From contig OZ316893.1 of the NCBI GenBank assembly GCA_973895155.1, positions 12,106,359-12,170,358 of the forward strand: 64,000 nt of DNA, given 5' to 3'. Shown here piece by piece: positions 1-52,512 of this stretch. The stretch is from Marsupella aquatica (Eukaryota; Plantae; Marchantiophyta). The notes under the pieces are model-generated. The model had not been told where the DNA came from. It made no database searches and saw nothing but the letters and a program-made list of their open reading frames with translations. The position numbers and the translations under genes are program-made. Every line of letters starts with the position of its first letter. The first letter of the stretch is position 1.

Positions 1-1216
1 ACAAGAAGACGCAGCAGAAGAAGAAGCGAGATCTCAAACAAAGAGAGAGAGGAGTCCCGAGAGAGTAGAGCGCGAGAGTGAAGGCCGATTTATTAACGAC
101 GGCGCAAGTCTATAGTTGCGCAGGGTACGGTCCCCAGGAACCCCTCCCCCAGAAGTCCCCTCCTGGGGGTCGCCCCTCCAGTCCCCGAAACACGGCAGTC
201 AGCGTACCCATCACCGGTCATCATTGTGGGTCCCGATCGACGGCCCTTATCGCCACCTCCTCCCCAGTTCAGACCCTCTCACCGTCGATCTCGAAACCCA
301 CTAACTACAGTTAAGTGGAAGGCAGGCCAGTAACTCCAGAACGAAACCAGTGAAATGTGAAGTACCTTTGGGACACGCCCTGCCCTGCCCGTACTGGACT
401 GGTCTGGAGGCCTTGTCAGCCTGTCCGGTCAGTGGGTCGGGTCGGGTCAGCTCGCTCGAGCGGTCAAACTTGGGAAATACGACCTCCACCAGTCATCAAC
501 CTAGTGGCTCCACCGGCCCTGCCCTGCCCTGCCCGGCCCAGCCCAGCCCGCTCCCGACTTCCTTCACTCGACGCACGCTACCCGGACCGTACTGTACAGA
601 GCGAAAGGTATGGTGGTGCCTATCCGTATTTCCGTACCCCACTCATATACTCCGACGTCTACAGGACAAGTACCTACGGTATCCCGTAACTGTATTCCGG
701 GATTATCGTTTGCCGTCGCCCTTTAAGCTTTATTGTAATTTATTATTCTCGAAATGGCAGTTTTTCTGTAGCGAGAGACCGGCAATTTGAACCTCGGGTG
801 GATCTTGTCTCTTTTACAATCGGGCGGACAGGAAAAAGACATCATAATGAATGGCCAATGATTCGAGGACGTGTTGACACCCTTCTTAACTTTTGACTAG
901 TGATTGGAATGAATTGAATTTGGTTTGTTGGAAAGCTCACTTGATGCTCTTTGTTAGGTGCTAAAGCAGGTTTGAGACTTTGAATGGCTGTGAAGAAATG
1001 AAAGGTGGTCATCCATAAGATCAGTGAGATGTTGGGTTGACGTGTTCTTTTTAAAATCTTAGGTTTAAATCACTATACGAGAAAATTGTATTTGGACACA
1101 GTGTGTCCCATTTGTAAGAGCGATGCAAGCATATCAGCACACCTTGAGGTTTATCAAAGCTAAAGCCCCAACAAAGAGGAAGAAACTCAAAAGCCAAACA
1201 TGTCACCAGGACCAAA

Positions 1217-1577
1217 TGTCATGCCGAGGGACAGTGCCGCTTGTGCACATCGGCATGTCCCTCGCATGCCCGCTAGGTATGGTTAGGGCTAGTGTACTAC
1301 TTGAGTTAGTGTCATGTTCTTGTAACGAGTCTGGGCTGTTCTTGAAGCAAAAGGGGTTTGTTAGTGTGACGCCTGGACCCGGTCCTACTTAGGGCATGTT
1401 TTTCTTTGCCGTTCTTCAGTTCTTCTTGAATCGCTGTGAGACAGTTTTTCAGAGGCTGCTCGTCGGTTCCGTACACGGAATTCACACAGTGATTCGTTAG
1501 ATGTTCCCGGCCGATCTTGGCATCTCGCCGGTTTTCGATTCGATTTCAGTACGTTTGTTTCTATCACGCCTTTTATT
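1217..1577 (+). repeat. Terminal repeat A1 (361 bp)
   Basis: Matches 10762-11124 apart from about 3 substitutions and a 2-bp indel seen by eye. Starts TGTCA but ends TTTTATT, not CA. Confidence 0.95.
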
Positions 1578-1590
1578 CAAGAAGAACTGA
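1575..1590 (+). promoter_or_regulatory. Candidate self-priming primer-binding site
   Basis: ATTCAAGAAGAACTGA is the exact reverse complement of TCAGTTCTTCTTGAAT at 1416-1431 inside A1. No TGG-type tRNA PBS follows A1. Confidence 0.65.
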
Positions 1591-2204
1591 CGAGTGAAGG
1601 GAAGAAGATCAGAAACGCTGTGTTTCTCAATTGCTCGCGACGGTCAACACTTTCCGTCGACAGCAGCGCAATTTCTTTGAAGAAAAATCTAGTGATGGAG
1701 TTAGAGTTAGATTTTTCTTTGTATACACATCACTTATGTGTATACACTTAAATTTGCGGACCAGCGGAGTACACACAGGAGGAGACGAGGGGAGCGCTTC
1801 TCACTTTCCGGGAGGTTTTGCATTTTCAGGGGGGCCTTTTCGCCCCTTCTCTTGATCCTTCTTTTCTTGCTGCCTGGCAGCTGGAGGCCGCACCTTTGTG
1901 TATGCACACGGCCAAGGGGGCGACCACGCACATAGGGCCGCACGCCCATGTTACCCACTCCGGACGTTTTTCTTTCTCTCCTACCGGCCTCCCCGTCCTG
2001 CCTGTGTATACACATGCGGGGCTCGTCATTGCCCCTGGGTCGCGCATAGGGCCGCGCGCCCTCCCTTCGGCGTTTTTTTCTTCCTCCCTTGCTTTTGCCA
2101 GCATCTCGGCCAGCATTTAATTCAGCGCGAGGGGGAGCCGAGCAGGAGCACAAGCGCGAGGAGAGGAGGGGGAGCCGAACACAAGCCACAGAGAGGAAGG
2201 GGGC

Positions 2205-2545
2205 GAGTGCCAGGAGAGGGCACGAGGCCCTATGACACATTAAAGAGGGGAGGGGGAAGCGAGTGCCAAGAGAGGGCACGCAGCCCCATGTTGCATTAAC
2301 AGGAGGGGGAAGGGGAGTACATATGACTCCTTCCCACAGGAGTCCTTCTGCCAGGCACGAAGGCCTATGAGGCATTAATTAGAGCAGGAGAGGAGCGAGA
2401 CTGCCAGGAGAGGGCACGAAGCCCAATACAGCATTAGAGGGGGAGTACATTCGACTCCCTCCTCTCGGGAGTCACAGTCCTGCCAGGCACGAGGCCCTAG
2501 GCAGCATTAGAGGAGGGGGAGGGTGCGCAAAGCCCTATGCAGGGC
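2205..2545 (+). repeat. Degenerate ~55-80-bp repeats in the element leader
   Basis: About 5-6 copies of TGCCAGG(AGAGG)GCACGA-GCCC...GCATTA...GAGGGG. Two copies contain GACTCC(C)-N7/8-(G)GGAGTC dyads. Confidence 0.7.
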
Positions 2546-3176
2546 TCGAGCACTTAAAGGCCCGTTTTCTTTTTCCTCGCCTCGCCTTGGGTCTCGTCTT
2601 TTCCTTTCGCCCTTGCCAAAGCCGTTTTTCTTCTGTTTCTTTTTCCCCATGGTTGCTCGTCCGCTGCGCGACGATTGCAGAGTCTTTCGACTCACATGAG
2701 GGCATGTGCATAGGGCACCGCGGCCGGTCCCCACTACGACCATTTTTCTGCCGACACCCTGCCCCCATGTGTATACACTTAATTGGGGTCCTTTTCTTTT
2801 AGTTTTTGGTCTTTTTGCTCCTGCGCCGTGCGACGACCGTCCCACCTACTTTTGCATACCTTTGCTGTCAGTTTCCGGGTCCACAAGGGGCCCGAGGTAT
2901 ACACGTAAAGGGGGCCCTCCTTTCACGTTCTAGGGGCCCGTTTTCCCTTATTCTTTGCTTTGCTTATGTATACACATAGGTAAGTGCGACAAGGGAAAAT
3001 TTGGTGGTTTTAAGGGTCCTTTTTCTCCGGTGACGGTTTCTCCGTGCTTACACATTCTACCCATTTCTGCCTCGCATTGTTTGTTTCCTTTGTGGGTTTC
3101 ATTTCCTAGCCTTGGGGTTGCCATTTCTTTTTCTTGTCAGTTTCTTTCCCATTGGCACCCCAGGTGAGCATGCAGC

Positions 3177-5016
3177 ATGTCAGCAGAGGAGCCGACTCGT
3201 AGCAGCTCATCGCCATCGACACCCAGGTACCACTTGCGGAGTGATCCACGACCGTTGGTGCCAATTTCATTGGAGTCTCGACAATTTTGTCGGCATCAGC
3301 AGACAGTAGACAGCAGCAGCACCCACACCACGCAACCCTTCTGCTACATTTGGCGGTCGCTTCACCACTACCCTGAAGCCTGCTATTACATCTTTGCCCT
3401 TTACTCCTTCTGCATCCGTGGTTGTTTCTGCTTCACCGACATACAGCATGGACGTCAACCACTCATCTGGCCGCATTGAACGCTTCAGCGGGCGGCCAGG
3501 CACTGTTTCTTTGCGTGAGTTCAAATCCACTTTCTACACTGTCGTTTACGAATTGGAGTTGAAGTATGGCAGCAATTTCACAAATGCTTTTGCATTTAAG
3601 CAGCTAGCCAAGTATGTGCACCACGAGGCTTTGGATGTGTATGAGCAGCATTCTCAACGGCTGCTTGCTGTCACACAAATGCCTAACCCTGCCTATGCCA
3701 CTGCAATTGCGGCTGCCTCACAACTGGCATTACAGAATGCCATTGCAGCCCATGCTGCTGCTCCTGCCACTTCCCCTCCTACTCCAGTTCCCACCACTAC
3801 ACCAGTTACTCCCACTGTCTTGGCACAGGCTACATTAGGCATTTCTCCCACCATTGATTCCCCTGCCTTTGCTGATCCCGTGGCTGAGTTTTTCCAGGTT
3901 CTTGAATTGGAATTCCCAATCAAGAGTGCTGACAAAATCATGCAGTTGGCCACCTTTGTGAGGCAGCGCGATGAAACATTGAAGATGCTGTATCGCCGGC
4001 TTCTCAAGCTGAAGGAAGACACTAAGAGCATCACTGACCTGGAAGCTGCTCATCGCTATCTTCGCGCATTGGAGGGCACACCAGCTCTCCATTCGCAAGT
4101 GTTGCAGCAAGTATTCTCAGAGTTTGGAGATAGCTACACCCTGCTCAATGTCTATGACACTGCTGAGAAACTTGAGTTGGCCCATGCACATTATGAGGCC
4201 AGTATTGCGCGTCCACCGCGATCCAGGTACCAGGCTGCTGCCCCTACACTGGCCACTCCTTCCCGTGTGCCATAGTATGGTTCCAAGACCAAGCCAGCCC
4301 ATGCTGCTTTCATGCTGCCATCTTGCAACTACTGTGGTAACCCCAATCACAAGGCTAATGAATGTGATATTGTTGCTGAGGACCTATCTTGTGATTTTTG
4401 CGGGAAAGTGGGCCACTTGGAGGCAGTTTGTTTTGCCAAATTCCCCAAGAGGAAGCAGCTACGACAGCAGGCCACCCATCCTGCTCCTGTTTCCACTCCC
4501 CCACCAGCTAGGAGGGCTCCTACTGCATCAGTTGCTCCTCCTTCCAGTGGCAAAGCATCTAGTGCTCACAAATTGCCCAAGCAACAACAGAAGCAACCAG
4601 CTCAGAAGGAGGCTCACAACGCACAGGCAACTCAACTCCAGTCTCTGACTCATGAGGTTGAGTCATTACGTGCCCAACTTGCCAACATCAAAGGCAAGTC
4701 CACTGCCTCTGCTGGTCCTTCTCAACCGGCTGGTCACGTGCAACCCATCCCTGGCCCAGGCACCACTGACAGTTCAGCACCCATACCCCGCTCTTTCTAT
4801 GGCTTGCCATTTGATGCTCATATGGGTGAGTGTGTGCTCTCCTCTGCTACACAGCCTGGCCTTACAGCAGAATTTTCAGATTCATTTTGCCCTTCCTATT
4901 TTGCTTACCAGCAGGCCAGTGCTGCCTCCCATATTGCTCCCACACGCCGCATTGTATAGGCTGATGGTCTTGCTGCTGGTCCTATGACTAGAGCCAGGGG
5001 AGCTCGGGTTTGCTGA
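3177..5016 (+). pseudogene. gag: Gag-like protein with two CCHC zinc knuckles (interrupted)
   Basis: ORFs 3394-4275 and 4312-4959 share a frame and are separated by TAG. Knuckles are CNYCGNPNHKANEC and CDFCGKVGHLEAVC. The likely N-terminus MSAEEP...RYHLRS at 3177 needs a frameshift near 3301. The frame ends at TGA 5014-5016. Confidence 0.75.
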
Positions 5017-6268
5017 AGAGCGCACCTTGTTGGCGAGGGGGGAGGGAGCTGCAGCTACATCCATTCCACCACCAGGTGCTGCTGACATTTCACAGGGAGT
5101 TGTCTTTCCTGAGCTGCTTGAGCATTTCACCTCCGGTATGGCACAAAGGATTCTTACCACTCCACTTTTCAGTTGCCAGGATTTACAGTTGGATGCTAGA
5201 GCTGTCCTTAGAGCGCTAGAGGGCTCACTGCATTCTTCATCAGCCCCTGTGACACCGGTTTTGGAGGTCCAATCTCATGTACATACTGGACCTTCTTCTT
5301 CTCCACTGCATGCTTCCACTGGTTTGGCTATCCCAATACCGATTTCCAGTGGTAGAGATGACAATATTGCTGCAGATTGTGTGACCAGAGCTACACTTGA
5401 TTCTGGTCATGCTGCTCCATCTTTCCTAGCTATGCTGTTGAGTGGGAAGACCGTGGACACTAACTCCCTTCACAAGGTACCTCATCATTTGCCAAAAGTG
5501 GTGCCTAGTGACAGGACTTTAGTTTCCACCACCATTGCCATTGTTGACAACAGGAATTCAGCAGTCAAGTTGGAGGGTCACACTTCTCAAGTGGTCATGC
5601 TAGACACAGGCGCTCAACCAATGATCTTGGGCATTCAGTTTGCCAAGAAGATGGGACTGCTGACTGATCATTTACAACAATCCAGGTGGCACATTCGGAC
5701 TGCTAGTGGCACTATGGAGGATGTGCTGGGTGAGAGTTCTACTTTACTCACTCTCACTTTTAATGGAGGTACAGATCAGGAACTGCATTTCCCAGTCAGA
5801 TGTTTGGTTACCAATGCCACTACGTATGATGTGCTCATTGGCCAGGAGGCTTTGTTCCCACCAGGTTTTACCATTGACAACTGGCATGAGCATGCATACT
5901 ACAGAGTTGATTGGCATACGGATGGCTCACACTTGGGCTACATTCCACTTGATTTGCATGGTGCCCATACCCCTATGGCTCACCACTGTGTGTTGAAAGC
6001 AGTGCACACAGCTACCTATGTCAACCACCCATTGCAGGATTGGATTGAGGAGGATGATGATGAGGTGGCTATTGCACATGCTGCTGCACGTATAGCAGCA
6101 CTTTCCAGCAACATGGATCATCAACCAGAGGTGGTACAACGGCTCCAAGCAGCCCATGGACCTTTGGTGGCTGCATTGCACAAATTTGAGGACCTTGGGC
6201 AGCATAATGGACAACCAATAGCCCCAATCTTGAGCGCACCAATTACCTGGACTCCTCCTTCAGATGGC

Positions 6269-7205
6269 CTTACATTGCTTGAGCTTTTTGGTGGCATTTC
6301 TACAGGCCTGGAAGCTCTCCTAAAGTCTGGCATGGTGGTGAAGCAGTACATCTATGTGGATATTGATCCAAGTGCAAGGCAAGTGGCTGAATTCCGTCTG
6401 CTGGAATTTTCAGAGCGATTTCCTCAGCAGTTTTCACACAGTGCATGGAAGTCTGCATTTTCTTTCTTTCCTCCAGATATCCAGCTTGTCCAGCACCGGC
6501 ACTTAACCCTTCTTGGCTCCCTTGATTTGATCATAGCTGGTTGGGAATGCCAAGGGTTTTCAGCTGCTGGTCATGGTGCTGGACTGCATGATTCTCGTTC
6601 TGGCCTTTTTACAGCATTGGTTCAGATTCTCACCTGGGCTCAATCCCTTTATCCTGCTGTTGGTTATATCATTGAGAATACTCCATCTCAGTTTGACCAG
6701 CGTCCACAGGTCAAAGAGGATTTCAGTGTGGTCTAGCACTACTTGGGACCACCCCTTCTCATTGATGCAGTGCACTGTGGTTCTTATGCACATCGTCTTC
6801 GTAACTTTTGGACTAACCTTGCACCACCTTCCTTGCTGGAGATGGCTCTTCACCACACATCCAGGGACACTAACCTTACAGTGGACCAGATTTTGGATCC
6901 TGACAGTTCTTGCCAACCAGTTACACGGCAAGAGCCAGCACCTTGGTATCCAGCTAATACCATTGGACAACCCCGTGCTGCTTGGCCTACATTTGTGTCC
7001 TTTCCAGGTGCACATGCTTTTCAGGGTGATGGTCCTGGGCTGGTTTATCGACATTCTACCGGTACATGGGATGAACCTAGTCCTGAGGAGAGAGAACGGG
7101 CTATGGGCTTCCAACCCGGTACTACAGGTCACACCAAAATCACCAGGCTGGCCAGGACTGCTTTACTTGGCAGGGTAATGGATCTCAATGCTCTCACTTG
7201 GCTTC
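6269..7205 (+). other. C5 cytosine DNA methyltransferase domain inside pol
   Basis: Motifs in order: I LLELFGGISTG; II YVDID; IV DLIIAGWECQGFS (catalytic Cys at 6548-6550); VI IIENT; VIII HRLRNFWTN; IX ERERAMGF; X LLGRVMD. Confidence 0.9.
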
Positions 7206-10200
7206 TGGTCACTTGCATCCTTTTTCAGATGTACATTCCTCCAGCATTAGGAGCTCCAGCCCTACCCCTCCACAGTGCTGCTACATGGCATCCAGACCAG
7301 GTGCACTTAACTCTATTCAACACTCACCGCTTCAGTCCAAGTGTTGGGGGGGAGGAGGTCCCTTGTAATGTGGCTGACATTATTTATGAGTTTCATGGTG
7401 TGGATCAGACCAGAGCAACAGATACAGCAGGCCTTGGAGAGGCCTCATTACCTTATCAACAGCATGCTAGCAGCTTGGACAGTGGAGAGGCTGGCACTTC
7501 TGGCTCTTCAAGCACGAGTACATCAGGTCCTATTCCTAGTGTTGCCAACTACACATTTATCATGGGCAACCACCTGAGTAAAAGACAGAAGGACCAGCTG
7601 CTGAATTTGCTCCCCAAGCATGAGAATGTGTTTGCTTTCTCTATGAAGGACTTGGGTAAGTGCAAGACTATGCAGTTCTCCATTGAGTTGGTTGATGAAA
7701 CACCTATCTTTAGGCGGAGACACCGTTTGAGTAAGCATGAGTGGCAGCTGGTGGATGAGAGGTGCCAAGAGCTTTATGAAGCTGGTCTTATTCAGCCATC
7801 TACATCAGATTTTGCGGCAACTACAGTGATGCCAGCAAAGAAGGATTCCAGTGGATTGTGGATAGAGAAGCGCATGTGTGGGGACTATAGGCCATTGAAC
7901 CTGGTCACACCCCAGGACAGGTACCCCATGCCGCGGCCAGAGGAGCTATTTGACAGCATTGGAGACTCAGACATCTTCACTCTTGTGGATTTAAGGCAAG
8001 GCTTCAACCAGATTTTGCTGCTTGCAAAGGATCGCAAGAAAACAACTTTCCATGGTAGTAACCAACTATGGGAGTGGTTGGTGATGCCATTTGGCTTGAA
8101 GAATGCGCCCATATTCTTTCAAAGAGTCATGGACCAGGTTCTACAAGGTGCTGAGTTTCTGAAATGCTACATTGATGATGTGTTGGTCCACAGCAAAGGA
8201 TTTGACCAGCATCTACTTGACCTTGAGGAGCTATTCATGAGGCTTAAGAAGGTGAACCTAAAGATACACCCCAAGAAGTGTGAATTTGCTGTCAGATCAG
8301 TAGTATATCTTGGGCATCGTATTCTTCCAAATGGAACCATGGCTCACTGGGCCAAGGTGGTATCCATCTTGGAAATGCCCACTCCTACCGATGTTCACAC
8401 TTTGAGGAGTTTTATTGGGTTGTGTAATTACTACCGGATCTACATCAAAGATTTCAGTACCATTGCACACCCATTGTATGCTTTGTTGAAAAAGAATGTG
8501 ACTTGGACATGGAGTATAGATGTTGAGGCAGCATTTGCCACTTTGAAGGAGAAGCTCTCAGAATACCCGGTGCTGAGAAGACCTGATTTCAACAAGGTCT
8601 TTGTGCTACACACAGATTGGAGTGCCCTTGGGATTGGTGCCATTCTGGGCCAGCATGATGAGGAAGGTAAAGAGTACGTCATTGCCTATGCATCCAGGAG
8701 CAACAATCAGGCAGAGAGTCATTATTCTTCTTATGAGGGTGAATGCCTTGCTGTTGTGTGGGCTGTCATACATTACAGGCCCTACCTCTATGGGACCAGG
8801 TTTGTTCTCTACACCGACCACCAGCCCTTGAAGTGGTTGATGACCAACGACAAGCTTACTGGCAAGCTTGCTCGTTGGGCACTCATACTTCAGGAGTATG
8901 ATTTTGAGGTAATTCATAGGCCTGGTGTGACACATCAAAATGCTGACACTATGTCCCGCAGCCCTTTGATTGCCTCTGATGATCCCTCAGATGCACGGCA
9001 GGATTTTGACCAGGTTTCCATCCTGCCTACATTTCATGCATCTACCTATCTTGCTTTGCTGCCATGCTACATTGTTGACCAACCTGTGGTGGACATATGG
9101 GAGGACAGCGACACTCTGAGATTTCTGCAGGATGGGGAGTACCCCACCCATGTTACTGCTGCCCAGAGAGACCAAATTCAGCAAAGGTCCAAGCGCTACT
9201 TGTGGAAGGGAGATCATCTTGTGCGCTACTTGCCAGACAGGGAAGTGGTGGTTCCACCCATTCATGAGAGGGTTGGCCTTATCCGTAAGGTACATTCTGA
9301 GCTTGGTCATTTTGGTGTTAAGAGGACTTATAGCCACTTGGTCCCCCATTATCATTGGAGAGGCATGCATGGCCAGGTTCGAGATGTTATTGCCCGGTGT
9401 GAGCAGTGTGATAGGGTAAGGACTTCTTTCACATCTCGGCAACCCACACTTCATCCACTCCCTATTCAGGGCATGTTTTATCGTTGGTCATGTGATTTGG
9501 CTGGAGAATTACCCCTCACATCTCGGGGTAATCTCTACATCATGATCATGATAGAGCATTTCTCCAAGTGGATAGAACTTGTGGCATTGCCGGATAAGAC
9601 CTCCCGTAGCACCAGCCAGGCATTCTTGCAACAAGTTCTCAGCCGCTTTGGAGCTTGTGCAAAATGTCTCATTGACCAGGGCTCAGAGTTTAGAGGAGAG
9701 TTCCAGGAGCTGCTTGATCAGGCTCTCATTGATCATCGCCGGACATCACGAGATCACCCACAGGCAGATGGCTTGGCAGAGCGCATGGTTCAGACATGCA
9801 AGAAGGGCCTTCGGAAGATCTGCCTCACCAAAAACAAGGAGGATTGGGACCTGGCCTTACCCTACATTGCCATGGGGTATAGGATGTCTAGACATGCATT
9901 ACTGTCTAACTTTTCTCCCTACTTCTTGTTGTTTGGTCGTCACCCAGTTCCACCTTCTGCTATTGCTTCTCACATGCTTCAGGTGGTGGACTTGGATTCA
10001 GCTGTGACTTGGTCTGATGTGATCTCTGAGAGGGTTGCCCTATTCAGGAGGGTTATGCCCATGGCCATGGAGAATTTGGCCATTGCACAGCATAGGGACA
10101 CACTGCGTTATGCACACACACACGAGGGGGCACTTTTCAGCCCAAGGTCAGGAAGTTTGAAGTGGGAGATTTTGTGTACTTGCAGCAGCAAGCTAACGAC

Positions 10201-10389
10201 ACCCTGGACACCTCTACCAGTCGCACTATTCTCAGGGTCAAAGCTATTCGACCGTCTGGAGTGCTAGAGTTACAAGGGGCAGATGGGTGCACAATTGCTG
10301 ACAATGCCAAGAATTGCGCCCCTTGTCATCTGCCTAACCTGGATCCCACCATTGTGACTTCTACTTGGATTCCACCTGTGGACTACCCT

Positions 10390-10525
10390 TGCAAAGTGTG
10401 TTTGCGAATTGATGATGCTGACCAGATGCTGCTGTGTGACAATTGCAATGGAGGGTACCATCTTTTCTGCCTTCGGCCTGAACTTACCCAGGTGCCAGAA
10501 GGGTTATGGTTTTGCCCTTCCTGTG
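10390..10525 (+). other. PHD finger (C4HC3) at the integrase C-terminus
   Basis: CKVC...LLCDNC...YHLFC...WFCPSC in ORF 10162-10542. It joins the integrase frame once the extra CA at ~10120 is removed. Confidence 0.92.
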
Positions 10526-10673
10526 CTCCACGTGCTACCTGAATTTTCTTCAGCCCTCCTTTTGACTATGGTCTGGGGGGGGATACAGAGGTTTACACCT
10601 CCACTACGTACATACCATCTCAGTTGCTTTTTCTTGGCACTTGTGAATGTGATTGGACTTTTTTCTCAGGATG

Positions 10674-11209
10674 TTGGTTGCTAGCAGCTTGCACATATGC
10701 ATTGCCAGTGACTTGTATGTTTTCGATACACTATGGCTACGATACTATATGTCACGACAGCTGTCATGCCGAGGGACAGTGCCGCTTGTGCACATCGGCA
10801 TGTCCCTCGCATGCCCGCTAGGTATGGTTAGGGCTAGTGTACTACTTGAGTTAGTGTCATGTTCTTGTAGCGAGTCTGGGCTGTTCTTGAAGCAAAAGGG
10901 GTTTGTTAGTGTGACGCCTGGACCCGGTCCTACTTAGGGCATGTTTTTCTTTGCCGTTCTTCAGTTCTTCTTGAATCGCTGTGAGACAGAGTTTTTCAGA
11001 GGCTACTCGTCGGTTCCGTACACGGAATTCACACAGTGATTCGTTAGATGCTCCCGGCCGATCTTGGCATCTCGCCGGTTTTCGATTCGATTTCAGTACG
11101 TTTGTTTCTATCACGCCTTTTATTTGGTTGCTAGCAGCTTGCACATATGCATTGCCAGTGACTTGTATGTTTTCGATACACTATGGCTACGATACTATAT
11201 GTCACGACA
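10674..11209 (+). repeat. 3' terminal block B1-gc-A2-B2
   Basis: B1 (10674-10759) and B2 (11124-11209) are identical 86-bp copies at offset 450. A2 (10762-11124) lies between them. The B1|A2 junction reads GACA-GC-TGTC. Confidence 0.95.
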
Positions 11210-13713
11210 CAAAAACAGTCAAGTCACTGGGATGGAGAGAGTATTTACAATGGAAAAGTAATGAAGTTCCTTTGGTAGAATAATCTAAGTGTATCAACAA
11301 AACAATTAACTGCATTTGACACAACAATGCACACATCATATCAGGGAGAGCTGTCATTGTGCAAAATCAGAAGAGCAATTATATTCGGTTTTTCTTGGTA
11401 TTAAATATTCGGCTGATGGCCTTTTCCAAAATAAATAAATAAATCAGAAAAGCAAGAGTGAACATTGTTTCCCTAAAGAACCTCCCACAAGATACTATTA
11501 AGGTGTCTCAAAAGTCAGGTTTGGCAGTCACAGTCGTCTCCTTCCATAGGAAAATGTTAAGATATCAATAACACTTATCCACTGCCATTTTAGGTAGTTC
11601 CAAAAGTTTCTGTGGACTAATAGCTTTTCCGTAGAGGGATACTTATGAACTAGTTATGAAACGCCCTATTAGAAAGTGGATCTGACTACTCTGATGCCAG
11701 AATGAGATTTTCAATTTTAGAGCGGGGCTGACAACTCTTCAATATATAGAATTTCCCAGATCCATTTTGGGAGAAAATTCAATAAAGTATGTTCTACGTA
11801 TGTTCGACATTAAATTGGTGGTGTTTTGGCATGATTGATAAAAGTATCATGGGACTCTGTGAGTGCCTTGAATTTGATGAGAGAATGATCTTTGTCGCTC
11901 CATATAGGCCCCAAATGAACAACGTCAGACGCACCGTCAGTCTGGTCAAACCATCATCCAAATCGAAAAATGATGTATACAGGAGAAGTTATTCAATCTT
12001 GTGGAATTGTACCCTCCCCCGAATGATGATGGTTGATCTTTCAGAAAGTTGGACAATATTTCGAATTGAACTTTATATAGAATAATATATACTCGGGACA
12101 CTTTTGTTTAGTCTAATTATCACTATGTTACCTTTTTCAGTCACAGTTAAGCAATCTAACCAGGCTCATGACAAAGCGTCCATCAACACAAAGGCTACCA
12201 TGGTGCACAATCTAATGGCTCCAACTCGCTTTGGGTCAAAGCTACCCACACCTTGACCTAGGGGCAAGGTTCCCCTAACCAAGGTGTCCCCTCACCTGAC
12301 TCCAACCTGGGTCCATGCGAGATTTGATGTTGTGGGGGAGGCAGGAAGGGAGGTTCATGTGCTCAGAATGGAGCAAGGTTGTGAAGGGGGAGCAAGGCTA
12401 CAGGAGATGGAGGCCATGAGGGCGAGCATGAGGGCGCATGTGGAGCCCGAGGTGGAACCCCAAGGGCCAGCGCAGCCCTGCTCCTAGACAAAGGGTAATG
12501 GGGTGCTTAGCTTCGACTCAACATTTGTAGCTGTTGGATTGTGTAACATGACAGGCTCTGCGTCATTGGATCAACTGCCATGAAGCCTGATTAGATTGCT
12601 TCACCCACGATGGAAACATTTGGCATCCTAGTAATTAGACTACAAAAGGCGGCAAGTGGTGCTAGTCAACAACAAAGGTAGCAATAAAGTAAACTCACTT
12701 TTTAAGATTTAATTTTGGGTGTGAATGTTTCCAGCAAAAGGCATACTGCATCCTTATTTAGATCCCAAGTTATTTTTGGATGATGCTTCCTGGCTAAGTT
12801 ACCTAAAAATTCCAGTAGTTAATGTGTCTAATTTTATGAAATCTCTCACATTTTCTCTGTGAGGTACTGCAAGTTGAGGATGACGGACAGGGAATGAAGT
12901 CTATAATTGGTTTCTGGGTGTAAAAGTAATCCAAAAATGCAACCAAAGTTTCTTATGCCAACTATTTCACATGGGATTGGAATCACCCACCCACCACCGC
13001 CAAAGACAAAGACTGTGATCCAAGCCTGTTTATTGAGTTACTGACTTCTAAGAAAACCAAAGGACTGAAGAAGAGAAGGCATGAATGGGCAAAAATTAAA
13101 CCATGCACTTCTTGAACAGGAAGGAAGATGAGATTCTATGAACATGGAAACGCCTGTGCATGGAAGGACATCATAGAACCAACTTCTTCAAACAGGTAGA
13201 AGTTCAAGTCCTCCAATTACATTTTTCTTTTTTTAAGACATTGCCTTAAACCCTCGTAGAAAATTTTGATCAAGATACTATGGACTTTTATGATGAGAAG
13301 TGGTGAAGTTGTAGGCAGATATAACTTTTAAAGCTTGAAGGTTAATGACATAAATTTAACAGAAAACAACCACCCTTGGGACTTAGCCCTGACCATACGT
13401 GCTGTAACTTGATGCTAGGATACGAGGTTCTTAGATATGGTTGCCAAACGTTATTTCACCTCATTGCTCCAATGCATGTATTTACATAGTACTAGTGGAT
13501 TCCACTCTTTTTGTGATTTTCCTTTGAGTCTAATATCACTATTTGGCTCAAACATTTAGTGGCCACAGATATTGAATCAAACTAAATGTCTAGGGCTGAC
13601 AAAGTGAATGTTTATCAATGGATGAGTCCATTGCCAAGGATGAGATGTGGGTGGGCTTGTAGCTTGTTTTGGCACCTTGGCATTTATTTTTGTGTGATAA
13701 CATTCAGATTCCC

Positions 13714-29349: not shown

Positions 29350-29955
29350 AGGATTACCAATGCTCGTCGACTTTTCTTTCAGCGAGGTGGGTGCCACTGT
29401 GCCACGGGAAAAACCCTAACGGGGTTTTACTAGGGGGTCTCAACCTTAACCACAGTTCTACTGTAGGTTCAGTATTAACAACGCTCATCGACTTTTCTTT
29501 TAGCGAGGTGGGTGCCACTGTGCCACGGGAAAAACCCTAAAGGGGGTTTTACTAGGGGGTCTCAAACCTAAACCACAGTTCTAAGTTCAGGATTACCAAT
29601 GCTGGTCGACTTTTCTTTTAGCGAGGTGGCTGCCACTTTGCCACGGGAAAAACCCTAAACTGGGTTTTACTAGGGGTCTCAAACCTTAAATACAGTTCTA
29701 AGTTCAGGATTACCGACGCCCATTGACTTTTCTTTTAGCGAGGTGGGTGCCACTTTGCCTCAAGAAAAACCCTAAAGTGGGTTTTACTAGGAGGTCTCAA
29801 ACCTTAAATACAGTTCTAGGTTCAGGATTACCAATGCCCATCAACTTTTCTTTTAGCAAGGTGGGTGCCACTTTGCCACGGGAAAAACCCTAAACGGGAA
29901 AAACCCTAAACGGGGTTTTACTAGGGGTCTTAAACATTAACCACAGTTCTAGGTT
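29350..29955. repeat. ~118-120-bp tandem array, 5 copies, most units carrying a telo-box-like AAACCCTAA
   Basis: GGATTACC...GACTTTTCTTTTAGCGAGGTGGGTGCCACT...AAAAACCCTAA...GGGGTCTCAAACCTT...CAGTTCTA repeated. Confidence 0.92.
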
Positions 29956-34200: not shown

Positions 34201-35127
34201 ATTTGTACCTGTTGTGCAAAAGCAGCCAACCCATGCTCAAGGACCCATGCTTAGGTAATTTTAGTGGCAAACCAAGGCTCAACTAATGTTAGCAGCACAA
34301 CAATGTTTGGCGACCTGTACGCAGCTAATTTCGTAGGTGAGCTAATTTTAGAATTTGACCCATACATGACTAATCTTAGTAGTTTATTTGCACTCAACTC
34401 GTGTGAGGCCATATGGTCTAAACATATGCCGAAGGCAATCGTCATAGGCACGGAGTTACAAGCTACAATAGCTGATCACTAAGTAAGCATACATATATAT
34501 ATACACAAGAGTCGTCCATTCAGGAGACACCATTCAAGAGGCAAAAGATCCAATAAAGGGGAGGCAACCAAAGGGCCAAAAAGCACAAGAGTGTTAAACT
34601 ATGACGTCTTCATTCATGACGATCCAATCATTACTCAATCCATGCACACGTAGTCGACACAATCTCTACGTGGTTCACCTCTTCTCCAAGGCTACGTCCA
34701 CACGAACACTCAAGCTTTACTTCAAGAGTAGACGAACACACATGCTCTCCCTCTTCCTCAAGTTGCTCCGTTACAATGAGTAAGCACCACTCACCAGCGG
34801 CTTACACTAGCCCTGGTATATACAAGGTCACACATGACTAACCTAACCTCAGCTAAGATCCTAACTGTGGTTAGCCTAAGTGTCGTAACCTATGAGTCAC
34901 AAGACTAAGAGCAATCCTTAACAAACTCCCCCTTGACTCTAGTCTTGGGGACTGCAATTTCTGCTATCCATATGAGATACTCAGCGGGAAATTCTAGACA
35001 ATCACCTAAAACCATAGGTGTCCCCCTAAAAACCATTTAAGGTTAACTAAGGGTTAACTAGAATTAAGCCGTAGCCATAACAGGATTGAGTAACCCATAT
35101 ACAGAAATTACATATTGTTAAGTTACT

Positions 35128-37564
35128 CTACTTGTGCTGCAAATGCAAAACTTGCAAAGTAGCACTGTGTCTTGAGTAACTCTCCAAAGGAATCACTTTG
35201 GTAAAAACATCAACCGGGTTGAGCTTTCCATCAATCTTGACTAGCTCAAACATTTTATCAGACACTGCTTGCCTAATAAAATGGTACCTAATGTCAATGT
35301 GTTTCACCCTGCTATCCATAACCTGGTTAATAGCTAGGTGAAACGCACTTTGGCTGTCACAATGAAGAGTCATTTTTCTATGCTCCAATCCCATCTCAGT
35401 GACCAGCTTATCCAACCAAATTGTTTCCTTTGCTGCTTTTGCTGCTGCAACATATTTTGCTTCTGTAGTAGAGTGAGATACACACTTCTGCAAGGTAGAT
35501 CTCCAACTTATGCATCCTCCTCCAAGAGTAAACACATACCCAGTCGTTGACCTCCTTGTTTCCAGACAGCCTCCGTAGTCAGAATCTACATAGCCAACCA
35601 AAGATTTGGTTTTGTTTGATCGACTATCAAACAACAGACCATAGTCTATTGTGCCCTTAAGATACCTGAGAATCCATTTCACAGCCTCCCAATGTACCTT
35701 CCCTAGATTTGACATGAATCTACTCACTTTGCCCATTGCTAGGGCTAGATCAAGTCTGGTACATGTCATCAAATACATTAGACTGCCCACTGCCTTCTCA
35801 TAAGGAACCTTAGTCATCAAGCCTCTCTCCACTGGATCCGTGGGGCAGATGATAACTTGAAATGTGAAGCCAAAGGAATACTTACTGGCTTACAATTTTC
35901 CATGTTGAATCTTGCAAGTACCTTTTCAGCATACTTGCCTTGATTCAGCCACAACTGTCCAGTTTCAAAGTTCCTCGTAATCTCCATACCTAAGATTCTT
36001 TTGGCTTTCCCAAGATCCTTCATTCGGAATTCAGAACTCAATTTTGCTTTGAGTTTGTCAACCTCAGTTTGATCCTTAGCCGCAATCAACATGTCATCCA
36101 CATAGAGCACCAGAATGAGCAAACCAAACACACCATTCTTGACTGATTTTGTATACACACAAGGGTCATACACCATCCTAGTGAATCCTTGTGCAAGCAT
36201 GAAATCATCAAACCGCTTGTTCCACTGCCGAGGAGCTTGCTTCAATCCATACAAAGACTTAAGTAACTTGCAAACTAAACTCTCTTGGCCCTTCTTCACA
36301 AAGCCCAGTGGTTGCCTCATGAAAATTTGTTCCTCCAAGGTGCCATAGAGAAAAGCAGTAACAACATCCATTTGATCTAACACCAGATCAAAAAACACAA
36401 CAAGTTGACACAAAATTTGTATCGTGAAATACTTGGCAACTGGAGAGAAGACTTCATTGTAATCCATTCCCTTCTCTTGAGTGAATCCCTTGGCAACAAG
36501 CCTTGCCTTGTATATCTTGTCTCCTCCATCTGAAGAGTTGTCCTTCAACTTGTAAATCCACTTGCTATCCACCACTTGTTGATCACTTGGCAGCTGCACC
36601 AGCTCCCATGTTCTGTTGTCACTTAAAGATTGCAACTCCCTCTACATCGCTGCATTCCATTCATCTTTCTCATCTGAAATGCACGCCTCATGATAAGAAG
36701 AAGGTTCTCCTTCTTCCAAGATCAGTGCTCTGTCATCATCATCAGGTGCAATGTTAACATCATCTAACCTTGATGAATCTGTCCATTGTCCATACCTTGT
36801 AGGAGCTCGAGTAGTACGTCTCGATTTTCTAGCTGATGATTCTGACTGATCTTGTTCTGTTGGTTGAATTTGAGGTATTCCAACAACAGCCTGCTCCTCT
36901 TGTTCCATTATCGGAATTAGCTCCATTCTCTGAGCACCTCCTTCATTTATGTCATGAAAACTCTCATGACCAATCTCCCCCACAACATGGTCCAGGATAG
37001 GAGATTTACCTTTGTCAGTACGGAAAGCCTGAGCATTCTCCTCCTCCTTTGATGATCTGGATTCATTAAAGGATACATCTCTACTGACAAGCAACGTACA
37101 AGCTTCTGGATCCCATAGCCTGTAACCTTTCACACTTGGTTGATAACCAAGAAAAAGACACTTCTTGGAAGTAGAATCTAGTTTAGATCGATGCTGCTTA
37201 GGTGTGAGAGCATATGCGTCACTTCCAAAGACTCTCAAAACCTGATAGTCTGCGTGCCGTCCATACCTCATTTCAAATGATGTCTTGAAATTGATTGCAC
37301 TTGAAAGAGAAAGATTTACCAAATAAGTTGCCGTATTTATAGCTTTAGCCCAAAATTCATGTGGTAAACCCGATTGGCTCAACATACTCCTCGATCGCTC
37401 CAATAGTGTTCGGTTCAGCCGCTCACAAACACCATTCTATTGAGGAGTATAAACTATCGTGAGATGACGAGTAATCCCTTGCTCTACACAATACAGTTCA
37501 AATTCACTTGAACTGTACTCCCCGCCGTTATTTGATCGCAGATATCTCACCTTGGATCCAGTTT
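35128..37564 (-). pseudogene. pol: Copia pol 3' part (integrase C-half, RT, RNase H)
   Basis: RS(N)NGGEY, YKARLVAKGFTQ, LYGLKQAPRQW, LYVDDMLI, YVDSDYGG, KHIDIRYHFIR; in-frame stops and a frameshift. Confidence 0.93.
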
Positions 37565-37569
37565 GATTC

Positions 37570-40500
37570 AGTCGCGAATACAACTTTCACCTACTCGTAA
37601 TTGCTCCGGCGTTGCCTAACTCCAGCGTTGCCTAACTCCAGCGTTGAGCCCCTCTTAGATTTGCTACCATCATGGCCAATAGGGATGCGACTAACAAAGA
37701 GGAGGCTAATAAGAGCAAGGACAAGACTTGAGAAAAGCGCGCTCCAATTTAACTCTATTGGGCCCGTTGCCGGTCACGGAAAAATGAACTATTTTTTCAA
37801 TGGATCACCATAGGGGCCCGAGAAGCCCCACATGAGTCCAATCATGGGGCTACATATTTCTCGGCCAACGGACCTAGGGACCAAAAGTTATGACCGATTC
37901 AAGTTGCATGCTTGTAGTTTGGGCCCGCTGCAGATCACGGAAATATGAACTATTTTTGTGATGATCACCATAGGGGCCCGAGAAGCCTCACATGAGCCCA
38001 ATCATGGGGCCAAATATTTCTCAGCCAACGAACCCAGGGGCCAAAAGTTATGGCCGACTCAAGCCGCATATTTGTAGTTTGGGCCCATTGCCGATCACGG
38101 AAAAATAAATTATTTTTCCGACGGATCACCATAGGGGCCCGAGAAGCCCCACATGAGCCCGATCACGGAGCCGCATATTTTTCGGCCAACGGACATAGGG
38201 GCCAAAAGTTATGGCCAATTTAGACTCGATTAGAGTCGCCGCGCATCGATGGACCAAGAAGGGGTTGCCTGGACCAGAGCGGGTTTAGGGCTGCAACTTT
38301 TAGCCCCCTATGCCACAATTTGTGCTTGAGGCCAAGTTACGGAAGGTTTTCGATTATCTTTGTTTCGAGCTAAGTGGCGGGGACCACGGACCCTCGGGTA
38401 GGGGGCCAAAGATAGGGGACCAAAGCTGGTCCGGGGGTGGCAGGTCCCCAGTAGCATATATGAGGGGAGTGGTCCTCTCAAGTTTGAGCTCGAGCTGACC
38501 GCGATCGACGAAGATACGTCATTTCGAGTTTTGAAGCGAAAATAAGCATAACTCGACTACCGGATCTCCGTTGGGGGAGTTCTTGGGCTCATTGGAAAGC
38601 TAATGAAGAAAGCTACCTCATGGTGCTATCTGATTTTGCATTGGATGGTTTTGGTTTTGAGGTTTGCAATGGGGGGAGTCCCTCTTGCCGATCCAAAGTT
38701 GAACAGTGACCAAACCGCATTTGATTCCCACGGGGATCTGATGTTGGAGAGGTAGAACCAAGTAGACTCTGGGGCCCGCCGTTGAGATCTGGTCCTGATG
38801 CATGGTGAGAGGTTGAGCGGAACCCGGTTTCGCAGAGAGGTAACTAAGATCTAGAAACTGAATGGTCCCGGCGTGTTACTACTAGTTTGGGAGAAACTGA
38901 GTTTGGGCCATGGGCATGTCCTGGAGGCAGGGCGGTCAGCCATTGACGGGTAGAAAGTAGGGAAGCTTGGGCGACATCCGATAGATAGACTGTTCCGGAT
39001 GAACAGTGATATCGACCTTAGTTTCAGCTTATGGCAAGGCCATGCGGGCCTGGAAGGCTCTATCCACTGACCTACTTACTAACGACTGTTGAGCTTGATG
39101 CAAGACAATGGTCTTGGGAGTTCCGAGATCAAGATGAGTTCTTATCGGTTGGTTGGTTGCTTGTGCAGATAGTAAGGACTGTTGAGCAACGGTTGTGCTG
39201 ACGAGGGCAAGTGCGACTTCGTATGGGAGGGGTCGCTAACGACAAGGAGTATAGTTAGAGAGAACTTGCCCCAACATTCCGTGTTAGTGCAAGGTTTGAC
39301 TTGTTTCAAGGCTGAGATATGAGTTTGGACGGGCACGTGGTGGGAGGGTCACCACTTGTGGTATCAGAGCATACGCTTTCATAGACGCCAGGGCCAAACG
39401 TCAAGTTAAGTCAGAATCCAAAAGAAAATAAGCATTTTTTTTGCGGGGCTTTATCTTAACGGCTTGGGCTTGGTGGTGCGACTGAAAGCATTTGCAATCG
39501 ATCTTGGGATGGCCAAGGGGGAAGGGCAAAAGCGACATATCAAGCCAAAATCAATGGCTGAAGTGGCTCAGGCCCCTCCATTCACTCCAATGAGTGGGAC
39601 GTCAGTAGGGGGGATTCATTCCAACCCTCTTACTTTGCCAGAAATCTCTGGACAACGACGTAAGAGTAAGGCAATTGACACGGCCCCCGCTAGCGTCGCA
39701 AGCTTTGGCGATCCATGGGCTGACTACTTTGAAAAAGAGAAAGTTAGCCCTGCCGCTCACGAGCTTGACTTTTCAGATTATGAGCATGATATGAATTTGA
39801 TTATGGACAATCTGGGGCTTGATGGTGAGGACATTGCGGGTGATTCTGAGCCCCCACCAGTCAAGGAAGCCTTTTTAGAGGAGGAACCGGGGACTCAAGA
39901 AAGGAGACCAAAGGAGAGACATTCATCAGGCACAACCATGTTACCAAGTAGGTCCATGACCTTCTTGGACCAGCTGACCGCCAAGTAGCGCCAAATTTAT
40001 TTGGCGCTTGACGTTGACAAAAATGCCCAGTTAATTTACATTTTAAACTTGGGCAAAGAACTTGCCAAAAGCGACGAGGGTGACTGGCCTAATAGAAGGG
40101 GTATGGTGCAAGTCAATCAGTTGCCCACACCCCCGACTTATGATGGAGCCTATGAACAAAGTGGACAAAGTTTTTGGCAATGGCTCACTACTATGGAGAT
40201 CCATCTCCAAGCATGTGTTGCCCCATCCACTTGGGCCTCCGCTGCCGCCCCGTATCTGCGAGAGTATGCCTTAACTTGGTACAAGTCTTGGGCAAAGACT
40301 CTTGAGGCTAGTGGTCAACCGCTCGTTTGGAAAGACATGGTTGAAGGTCTCCAGCTCAATGTCACCACCAAGTATCCGGAGCGACATGCAAAGAAGTGTG
40401 TCTCTGAAATGACTTATAGAGGCGATATACAAAAGTATATTGCCTACTATCAGATGCAATTGGCGTGTATTTCGGAAGGGGATGAAACCCTTTCAACGCA

Positions 40501-43500
40501 ATTGCATAATTTCATTGTCAAGCTTCCACCGTTGCTTCGCGAGAAATTGCAAGATCGGCAGCATGAGTTTAAACAACTCACTAATGCATTTGACCGAGCC
40601 ACGACATTGGTGAACAATCGTCCTGGTTTGGCTAAGGTTGGTGGCAAAGAGCAATCCGAGCTAGTGGAGAGTAAGAAACTCAAAGTTTTTGGTGCTAAGC
40701 ATAAGCAACCAGAGCGAGCGAGTTCAGGTGCAAACTCTCATGGACCTTCCGTCCACCCCAAACGTGGATGGAAGTTTTTGCCCAGGCCAGGTCAATCATC
40801 ATCTAAAAAAGCAAAATGTGAAGCAATCAAGGAAAAGTGCAAATTGGAAGGGCTTTGCTTCGAATGCGGTGAGCCTGGTCATCTAAGTAAAGAGTGTCCA
40901 CGGAAGGGCGCCAAACCTAATCTGGATGCGGGGGCTAAAAGCGTTAAGGTGAGTATCGCTCTAACCAATCCTCTGTTAGATGCTAGAGCTCCTAATGGGA
41001 ATTCCATCACTGATATAGACGAAGTGTTGCTAGAGAAGATTATTGATGCAAAGGACAACAATCCTGCCAAACTTATCCTAATTGAAACGTTAGCTAACAA
41101 TTGTTGGGGTGTTGCTTTGATTGATTCAGGTGCGACTGCCAACTTCATAAGCAAGGCGGCAGTTGAACGCAGCGGAGCAACTATGCACAAGTTGTTAGAT
41201 CCCTTGGTGTGTAAGTTTGCCAATGACACCCAAGGACTCGTTTCAAAAGTAGTCAGACATCTCAAAGTAGAAGTTGTTGGCGAAGATAGAAATTTTGTAA
41301 GTCAGGAAAGGTTCTTTGTTTTAGATGGCTTGGAGGTAGACTTTATATTGTCTATAGGCTACCTCCGTAAGCATAATATTACTCTTCAACCTAGCAAGGA
41401 ATTGCTGATTTTCCCGAGTACGGGAGGTAATCCGATCATTGTACATGAAATTTCTGAGAATAAAGAAAAGTTTCTCCAAGTAAGCACAGTGTCATGGTTG
41501 ACCCCTTGTATTTCGGCCAAGCAATGGTGGAAGAACTTCAAGGGTGGACATGAATGTTTCTTTTTTCATCTCCATCCAACTAAGAGCTCTATGAATAAGT
41601 CTAAGACAACAACGATTGGCCCCGATTGCGGAAAAATTCTTGAAATTTTGTAGGAATTCAATGATGTCTTGTCGCAAAAGTTACCTAAAGGATTACCTCC
41701 ACGGAGAGAAGTTGATCACCAAGTTGAGCTGGAACCGGGTTCGGCTCCTCAAGTGAAGGCCCCTTACCGTTTGAACTTGAACGAACGTGGAATGCTCAAG
41801 GAAGCATTGGAGGAATTGATTAATCAAGGGTTTATCAGGCCTAGTAAAAGTCCTTATGGTGCACCCGCGCTATTTGTGGCCAAGAAAGACGGGACCTTAC
41901 GACTTTGTGCTGATTATCGAGCCCTCAACAAACAAACGGTGAAGAATCGCTATCCGCTACCTCATATGGATGATTTATTTGACTCGCTCTCAGGTGCTCG
42001 GAAGTTTTCTAAGGTAGACTTACGATCCGGTTATTATCAGATTTGTATGGCAAAAGGCGATGAATATAAAACCGCCATGTGTACCAAGTTTGGATCCTTT
42101 GAGTATTTGGTAATGCCATTTGGATTATGCAATGCCACAGCCACGTTCATGAAAATGATGAACACAATTTTTCATGATTTGTTGGATCAAGGCGTCGTTG
42201 TCTTCATTGACGACATCTTGATTTATTCAAAAACCGTGGAGGAGCATGAGCAATAACTAAAGGAAGTGCTTCGGCGCTTGCGCAAAACTCATCTCTTTGC
42301 TAAACCAAGCAAATGTGAGTTTGCCATGAATGAAATCCAATTTTTAGGGCACATCTTTACCGAGGATAGCATCATGCAAACCAAGCCATGACAAGCTCGT
42401 TGATATTCATGATTGGGAACGACCCGCAAGTGCCAAACAGGTCCGGTCCTTTTTGGGATTTGTGGGTTTTTATTGACGTTACATCCAAGGTTTTGCACGC
42501 CTTTCTAGACCGTTAACAATGTTAACAATGAAAAATAAAGTGTTTGTTTGGATCCAAGATTGCAAAATCGCATTTCTTGAACTTAAGCGCCGGATGGTGA
42601 CTCCTTTGATTCTCAAATTACCGGAAGTAGGAAAACCATTTGAGATATGGACCGATGCCTCTGATTTTGCTATTGGCGCTTGCCTTCATCAAGACGGGCG
42701 CCCAGTAGCTTTTGAGTCTTGTAAGCTAGAAAATCATTGGATCACCCCAGAGCGTGAATTATATGCCGTCATCCATGCAATTAAAAAATGGGAGTTCTAT
42801 CTACGTAACGGCCCTAAGTTTGTGGTCCATTCAGATAGCTTGCCAGCGGGGTACTTCAATTCTAAGCCTCGATTGAGTCCCAAAGAAATGCGCTGGCAGA
42901 TGTTCCTTGCAGACTTTGACTTTGAAGTACACCATGTCCTAGGGAATATTAATAAGGCTGCTGATGCACTTTCCATGCAAGAGCATCATTGTGCCAATGG
43001 CATTTTAATGCTTGAAACCGAGTGGCCCATGCTATTGGCTGCCCAATACGCGGATGACCGACTTGCGCAAGAGTGGCAACAAAAGGGGGTGTCCAAGGAA
43101 AGATACGGCACGTGTCTTGGGTGTTGGACAAGAAATATAATGTCAATTTATGGCGATACAAACAGAGTCGCGTCTACATTCTTGAGTCACTCAGATTAGA
43201 GGTTCTGAGAAAGTACCATGACTCGCCTTGGGGTGGGCATGGGGACAACGTTCTACTTATTCAAGTATGTCCCGCGACATGTATTGGCCATACATGAAAA
43301 ATTCAGTACTCCAACATGTGCAAAGTTGTTACTCATGCCAGAAAAACCGAACGATTTACAAGAGAAAAGGAGGACTCTTGCAACCCTTACTTGTGGCCTC
43401 TGGACCTTGGGAGTCCATCTCCATGGATTTTATCCAAGGTCTTCCATCATCCCATAGCTACGATGCCATCTTAACAATCGTCGATCATTTTTCTAAGATG

Positions 43501-46500: not shown

Positions 46501-46575
46501 TGTTAGTGCAAGGTTCGACTTGTTTCAAGGTTGAGAAACGAGTTTGGATGGGCATGTGGTGGGAGCGCCACCACT
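37570..46575 (+). mobile_element. Ty3/gypsy chromovirus nested in the Copia integrase
   Basis: LTRs 37570-39356 and 44950-46575 with AGT...ACT ends. TSD GATTC at 37565-37569 and 46576-46580. PBS TGGTATCAGAGC 39359-39370; purine tract AAAAAATGGGGGG before 44950. Confidence 0.95.
39509..44517 (+). pseudogene. gag-pol: Chromovirus gag-pol with a C-terminal chromodomain (stops and frameshifts)
   Basis: [44 protein letters not shown]...SDRD...TERLN, and chromodomain EEYVMETILDHR...YLVKWSGY...STWEP. Confidence 0.93.
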
Positions 46576-46580
46576 GATTC

Positions 46581-51885: not shown

Positions 51886-52512
51886 CTTATAATATGGATA
51901 TGGATAGAATAGATAGATAGAAGATAGATGTGAGTTCCGAGTGCGCCTGCACGGTACCACAATGCGGTACCACTCTGATGAAGTCATGATTGTCTCACGA
52001 GCTTTTTACACTTCAGAAGTGTAGAGTAGACCCAACTGAAGTGGACTGCGGTGGCATCGCAATCCTGCACTGCTGTTTTTGCCATCCACCGTTCCGTTCT
52101 GTCCTGTGGCAAAAGCAGAGTACAGTACCGTACCCGCCCAATTCAACAGATGAGGTGAGGACGTGGGGTCTCGCTGCCAGCGATATCGCCGGTTTCTCAT
52201 TCCATTGAATCCATTCCATGGTGTGGAAGGGTTTTGTGTTGTTGTTTTCTTTTTGTTCGGGCTGAAGCGTTTTTGTTGAGGAGGGCTGATTGTGTGGGAT
52301 CTCTGGTGAATCATGTGGTCGCTTTGACAAATAAGCTCATTTAGGTGAACTGTGTAAGCAATGAATCAACTAATCCATCAATGATTTCCTTGAATCACAC
52401 AATCAAACAGTCACCCAATCCATCAATCATCCAGGCAAGGCAAGGGTAGGGAGAGTGAGAGAGAGAGGGTGGTGGCAAGGAGGAAGGAATCTGCTGGGAC
52501 AGGGAGAGAGCG

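Follow-up and report, generated by a model that had tools for sequence, protein, structure and literature searches.

The closest described counterpart of the element reported here is KnitGypsy-Dnmt3 of the alga Klebsormidium nitens, a Gypsy retrotransposon whose Pol contains a DNMT3 domain and whose repeats resemble those of DIRS elements (de Mendoza et al. 2018, PMC5890265). The consulted parts of that paper say nothing on its order of domains, on a PHD finger, on the sequence of motif IV or on how it primes and integrates. The stretch of DNA that we analysed (64,000 nucleotides from the liverwort Marsupella aquatica, hereafter the window) contains an element of the same kind, hosted by a land plant rather than an alga: as in KnitGypsy-Dnmt3, an intronless DNMT3-related domain lies in the Gypsy Pol frame, and the repeats follow the DIRS arrangement, A-coding-B-A-B (PMC5890265). 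The kinship with Klebsormidium DNMT elements that had been proposed by the first-pass annotation of this DNA therefore stands as a likeness in kind, which extends to purifying selection on the domain. No Klebsormidium-named sequence was among the matches of our sequence searches, and the likeness is one of features.

Other known systems share part of this anatomy. SymbioDIRS-Dnmt3 is likewise a retrotransposon with a C5 methyltransferase and A-B-A-B repeats, and its domain was active on CG in yeast, but it encodes a tyrosine recombinase, whereas the window element has a DDE integrase and 4-bp target duplications (PMC5890265). EpiLTRs also carry a C5 methyltransferase, but theirs is related to DNMT4 and is accompanied by an adenine methylase and a chromodomain (bioRxiv 10.64898/2026.05.21.726589). 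Animal DNMT3A/3B and plant host DNMT3 resemble the window domain in fold, motif order and a short target-recognition region (Yaari et al. 2019, PMC6453930), whereas the window domain is intronless, sits inside Pol, is about 22% identical to them and has EC for PC; DUF3444, the mark of plant host DNMT3 (PMC6453930), gave no match in Pfam scans. As for earlier reports, a 2026 preprint uses the term 'streptophytes (Gypsy-DNMT3)' with land plants unnamed and, in the text consulted, no mention of moss or bryophyte; the consulted text of the REXdb survey mentions neither PHD nor methyltransferase; and that of the Marchantia methylation preprint lacks Mp8g, its DNMT3b being Mp5g09290. The consulted parts of PMC11982613, PMC10952607, PMC11244446, PMC6453930 and PMC7022712 likewise contain no land-plant report of DNMT3-Gypsy elements. 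Neither a land-plant description of such elements nor an account of an integration route through a circle or an internal palindrome was found in the literature searched, which covered few subscription journals, in line with the earlier remark that a DNMT is not known as a standard feature of land-plant LTR lineages.

The window element is a whole Ty3/Gypsy retrotransposon of 9,993 bp (1217..11209; forward strand, as are all its genes and repeats), starting with TG and ending with CA. Gag, with a CCHC knuckle, spans 3448..4959, and a single frame (4988-10267) encodes, in this order, an aspartic protease (5564..5854, DTG motif near 5603), the DNMT (6269..7205), a reverse transcriptase (RT) core (7871..8323, YIDD at 8168), RNase H (8510..8899) and an integrase with an H2C2 finger and core (9257..10100). 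A PHD finger (10390..10524; E 1e-12) follows in the integrase tail, 3' of the integrase and in another frame in this copy. The order of protease, RT, RNase H and integrase, the DDE integrase, the Gag knuckle, the short target duplication and the TG...CA ends are Ty3/Gypsy features. Assignment to the DIRS retrotransposons was rejected, as the element shows no tyrosine recombinase and has rve and H2C2 integrase domains together with a 4-bp duplication. Short imperfect tandem repeats occupy 2190-2510 in the long 5' leader, a region that varies among copies. Elsewhere in the window, 29350-29955 holds five copies of a 118-bp unit containing AAACCCTAA motifs, which we take to resemble plant telomere repeats, and 52459-55272 has fragments of what is probably a host gene with introns, encoding WD40 repeats.

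The window element is a dead copy, unable to make its own protein. It has stops at 4273 and 4957 in Gag and one TAG in the Pol frame, inside the DNMT at 6734-6736, as well as frame breaks near 5008 and 10113. Among contigs of public runs matching the element, another letter stands in 99-100% of depth at 4273 and 4957 and in 100% at 6734, in four of four runs each, so that these three stops are private to the window copy. At 5008, some contigs of three public runs have extra letters, and at 10113 two letters are missing in contigs of four public runs. The single TAG in the DNMT had been recognized in the first-pass annotation, which was silent on the two Gag stops, both frame breaks, the PHD finger and the split end repeats.

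The DNMT motifs run in order, in frame with protease and RT and with one TAG between them, as had been described: motif I at 6269-6295, II at 6353-6367, IV (GWECQGFS) at 6539-6562, VI (IIENT) at 6668-6682, VIII (HRLRNFW) at 6791-6811, IX at 7085-7111 and X at 7163-7186. This order from I to X lacks the circular permutation of DRM, and DRM identity was rejected. The catalytic Cys, the Glu-Asn of motif VI, the Arg-x-Arg of motif VIII and the Phe-x-Gly of motif I are all present; the Pro-Cys dipeptide of motif IV is absent, with Glu-Cys instead. The PF00145 profile, proposed earlier as a check, matched above its curated cut-off (E 4.5e-07, 30 bits vs 22) over a short stretch around motif IV. In a sequence search of the PDB (43 matches, E up to 1), the top 19 were DNMT3A, 3B and 3C with a best E of 3e-07, and M.HhaI followed at E 0.02. 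An AlphaFold model of the domain from a 27-row alignment reached a pLDDT of 93.1; in Foldseek, DNMT3A/B ranked first (TM 0.72/0.82), and a comparison with 48,161 structure chains placed DNMT3B (Z 28.9) and DNMT3A (27.7) ahead of M.MpeI (25.2) and M.HhaI (22.8), with DNMT1 (18.8), maize ZMET2, a CMT (18.0), and MET1 (17.8) lower. The domain is nearer to DNMT3 than to DNMT1, MET1, CMT, DNMT2 or bacterial enzymes in both sequence and fold, and the DNMT3-like rather than MET1/CMT-like character suspected from the motifs is confirmed.

The element belongs to a family of many copies: a single public run has as many as 10,177 contigs that match it, with the DNMT covered like the RT, although contig depth is not copy number. 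A metagenome scan for relatives of the DNMT gave at least 600 pattern matches, at least 438 of them confirmed, and the best 80 (61-76% identity) were used. Among these 80 loci, protease lies 5' of the DNMT in 74 and RT 3' of it in 68, with 11 of the 12 misses being contig ends. No stop between DNMT and RT is shared, the commonest stop column comprising 13 of 74 sequences, and one relative of 2,358 residues has protease, DNMT, RT, RNase H, integrase and PHD finger in a single frame; the linker from DNMT to RT is a single reading frame in most relatives.

Selection was estimated between the window copy and 65 others, the distinct set of 66 that was left after 81 sequences had been collapsed at 98.5%. 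The median omega of the DNMT was 0.099 (54 unsaturated pairs; pS 0.73, pN 0.21), a deep comparison in which synonymous sites are near saturation and for which choosing loci by DNMT similarity favours conserved ones. The other enzymes gave medians of 0.095 (protease), 0.058 (RT, 7 pairs), 0.084 (RNase H) and 0.075 (integrase), and the linkers on either side of the DNMT gave 0.38 and 0.30. The dN/dS check suggested by the first-pass annotation thus yields purifying selection at a level similar to that of the protease, comparable to the Ka/Ks below 0.2 of KnitGypsy-Dnmt3 (PMC5890265). Closer pairs had an omega of 0.30-0.46 for the DNMT and 0.35-0.41 for RT, the higher values being as expected of copies that decay after insertion.

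Such a domain could conceivably be a relic left over from an algal element and decaying neutrally, given that stops occur in the window copy and in 65 of the 66 DNMT frames; a single frame of 66 is open, and most of the copies sampled are therefore dead. The stop density of the DNMT (1.18 per 100 codons), however, is close to that of the protease (1.01), of RNase H (1.15) and of the integrase (1.17), the other enzymes ranging from 0.79 to 1.17. The low deep omega, the Glu-Cys codons kept in 65 of 66 sequences and the many copies also stand against a relic, a reading that is largely refuted and that we regard as very improbable. Absence or neutral decay of the domain in other copies, which had been named as the refuting case, was not what the family showed, and we are highly confident that the element carries a DNMT3-type domain maintained by selection.

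The Glu-Cys dipeptide in motif IV is a consistent property of this family. Cys is present in all 66 distinct sequences and the preceding Glu in 65, which answers positively whether EC, noted at the outset beside the retained catalytic Cys, is conserved across copies. A wider set, of 175 homologues that each span 80% or more of the domain, has Glu ahead of the Cys in 104, Pro in 58, another residue in 11 and a gap in 2, with at least 15 switches between Glu and Pro on a FastTree tree. From this distribution, Glu-Cys is best described as a family trait, an old and recurring state and not decay. No test of a Pro-to-Glu change in motif IV was found in the literature consulted, including the consulted parts of PMC11982613, PMC10952607, PMC11244446, PMC6453930 and PMC7022712.

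This variability of the proline is one reason to consider that the domain might be kept for DNA binding or base flipping while transferring few or no methyl groups, for instance to hold cDNA ends or the internal palindrome for the integrase; a CG adjoining the terminal CA of the end motif fits such a role, and the Klebsormidium domain gave no methylation in yeast, a result its authors called inconclusive (PMC5890265). Against this, the residues that catalysis would demand are nearly invariant across the 175 homologues: the nucleophilic Cys (173, with 2 gaps), the motif VI Glu (174), with its Asn, and the motif VIII Arg pair (170 and 166), as well as the SAM-binding residues of motifs I and II. 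That every catalytic residue is under selection speaks for catalysis, and we consider a binding-only function unlikely.

The family has relatives in mosses, liverworts and green algae. The close named relatives are in Calypogeia fissa (66-68%) and in Sphagnum compactum and S. magellanicum (58-60%), and farther ones, in which a protease precedes the DNMT or RT follows it, occur in Marchantia polymorpha (Mp_8g17980) and four Closterium strains. These matches by themselves point to a bryophyte-type land plant as the host. Algal contamination was rejected as unlikely, the named relatives sitting on bryophyte contigs of 13-67 Mb. The earlier suggestion of a relic from a streptophyte-algal lineage is not supported in either part: the copies are many, with relatives in two Sphagnum species, Calypogeia, Marchantia and Closterium, and the domain is not confined to streptophytes, as chlorophyte elements carry a DNMT too. 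In the latter, the DNMT lies between RNase H and integrase, and this order (RT-RH-DNMT-INT, with or without PHD) was found in Hariotina, Tetradesmus, Scenedesmus, Chlamydomonas eustigma and Cymbomonas. A sister group consists of proteins predicted to comprise Gag, protease and DNMT, most of which have the PC motif (P0319, which is Marchantia Mp_8g17980 and is annotated as a host protein, together with P0316, P0318 and P0320-P0332); the predicted proteins of this PC-type group end 80-170 residues past the DNMT.

The DNMT tree separates the two domain orders with 2 changes among labelled rows (support 98 and 92 in two trees), so that the domain likely moved once within Pol; these trees are FastTree or quick trees, unrooted and built without host DNMT3, DRM or CMT sequences. 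In the RT tree, the elements with protease-DNMT-RT order group together (97) along with a DNMT-free element on a long branch, and since this element is drawn into the group, the RT tree cannot root the history. One protein, P0003, has its DNMT before RT and by this DNMT falls among the chlorophyte-type sequences, which may reflect a second move of the domain.

The position of the DNMT directly 5' of the integrase in the chlorophyte-type elements, together with the PHD finger at the integrase tail of the window element and most full-length relatives, raises another explanation, namely that an active DNMT acts on host chromatin or on the inserted copy through integrase and PHD finger, for example by silencing the copy and lowering its cost to the host. 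Host-benefit and insertion-site models were raised in the 2018 paper (PMC5890265). In the lineage of the window element, however, RT and RNase H lie between DNMT and integrase, and protease cleavage would likely part the two; we think it quite unlikely that this is the main target. Methylation of the element's own new DNA, discussed together with the ends below, is the reading that we prefer.

The ends of the element depart from two complete direct LTRs, which are not present. Instead, the layout is A...B-GC-A-B, in which repeat A1 (1217..1577) is 98.6% identical to A2 (10762..11124), and B1 (10583..10759) recurs as B2 (11124..11209) over its part 10674-10759, this common part being 100% identical and the start of B2 being shortened. 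Between B1 and A2, the palindrome GACA-GC-TGTC (10756..10765) brings the two end motifs of the element back to back, and the insertion is bounded by an exact 4-bp target-site duplication, CAAA (1213..1216 and 11210..11213). A G-run polypurine tract (10575..10582) directly precedes B1; in 20 loci of relatives the tract likewise lies directly 5' of B, with the palindrome about 150-180 bp further on. Among the 36 loci with the PHD end, 18 have B-A-B, 13 B alone and 3 B-A, and 2 reach the contig edge. The A2-B2 joint is a clean head-to-tail junction in most loci, and the start of B is lost there in the window copy and in one relative (L019), a loss that end-joining could cause.

Priming appears to come from within the transcript itself. 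The putative primer-binding site, located where A1 ends (1575..1590), pairs at 16 of 16 positions with a stretch of A1 near the presumed transcript start (1416..1431), the predicted self-primer, vs a best of 14 among 300 shuffles, and the match exceeds chance in 26 of 28 loci with sequences that differ from that of the window. There are no tRNA genes within the 64-kb window. Pairing of the A1 end within A1 is the hallmark of the self-priming known from Tf1 and Tj1, in which the primer-binding site is also complementary to a 5' repeat stretch with no tRNA-type site (PMC4600332; Tcn1 clade, PMC6317226). The ends of Tf1/Tj1-type elements are LTR ends, whereas the insertion ends of the window element lie in the middle of a unit delimited by priming site and polypurine tract (PMC4600332; PMC6317226). 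From the positions of these two sites it follows that the copied repeat is B-GC-A and that the insertion ends fall mid-repeat.

This anatomy suggests the following course. Intact copies would produce one polyprotein, Gag-PR-DNMT-RT-RH-INT-PHD, and the DNMT would be packaged with RT and integrase. Reverse transcription would be self-primed after A, with the second strand starting from the G-run before B, and would yield linear DNA terminated on either side by B-GC-A. The linear ends could then join into a circle, and the integrase could open the internal CA-GC-TG palindrome, giving A...B-GC-A-B and a 4-bp duplication; the HIV integrase is able to cut a palindromic 2-LTR junction (PMC1905944). 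Among long-form loci with both ends, the 4-bp duplication is exact in five of eight, has one mismatch in two and is missing in one. On the strength of the end anatomy, we consider insertion through a two-repeat circle cut at its internal palindrome to be probable.

The 13 of 36 loci that end after B1 allow a different view, in which the short form A-internal-B would itself be a primary product, formed when both palindromes of the linear DNA or the palindrome of a one-repeat circle are cut, and the long form would be one of two equal routes. Among 12 short-form loci examined, exact 4-bp duplications were seen in all five with both ends found, representing four distinct insertions. Two loci point the other way: L021 (3283-12952, long) and L036 (536-9666, short) occupy the same insertion site, with flanks 96% and interiors just 89% alike, and since they share the site, the short form there is secondary, through B-B recombination, or reflects an assembly collapse. 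We hold a primary origin of the short form to be doubtful, and cutting of the two-repeat circle remains our preferred route.

According to this course, the DNMT would methylate the newly made DNA of its own element at CG sites before insertion, so that the copy would arrive marked like host chromatin, and the PHD finger would help to pick the insertion site. Related DNMT3 domains carried by DIRS elements methylated CG when tested in yeast (PMC5890265). The coding region of the window element has a CG observed/expected ratio of 0.25 vs 0.72 in the DNMT-free chromodomain Ty3 element of the window, and its CWG is not depleted (1.59), a pattern that fits CG methylation. CG depletion was rejected as proof of self-methylation, as it is non-specific: Copia stretches of the window are low too (0.31 and 0.47), the end repeat of the element shows no depletion (0.90), and host enzymes would explain the loss equally. 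That chromodomain element (37570-46575, repeats 89-91% alike) is nested in a Copia element (34592-50553, repeats 97% alike) and, by repeat identity, looks older than the element enclosing it. We put at roughly 0.55 the probability that the DNMT of intact copies actively methylates the element's own new DNA. Our results tentatively raise the possibility of an old branch of Ty3 elements in the green lineage, from chlorophytes to mosses and liverworts, that would replicate in a way not known to have been described for LTR elements: it would form a self-primed circle, methylate it with its own Glu-Cys DNMT3-type enzyme and have the integrase open a CG-flanked palindrome, methylation possibly choosing the palindrome.

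The Gypsy-DNMT3 kind is already known from KnitGypsy-Dnmt3 (2018); what is new is the host range, the Glu-Cys active site and the inferred insertion route. Such elements inflate the DNMT counts of bryophytes in annotations, for example through Marchantia Mp_8g17980, and LTR finders that expect two whole LTRs would likely miss them. Their end anatomy suggests insertion through circles, which are usually regarded as dead ends, and the repeated switch between Pro and Glu beside the catalytic Cys probes how essential the textbook PC motif is. If the domain is active, the purpose of retrotransposon DNMTs, left open in 2018, becomes testable in Marchantia and Sphagnum, and land plants would host a many-copy transposon that writes the host's own silencing mark, beside a predicted histone reader.
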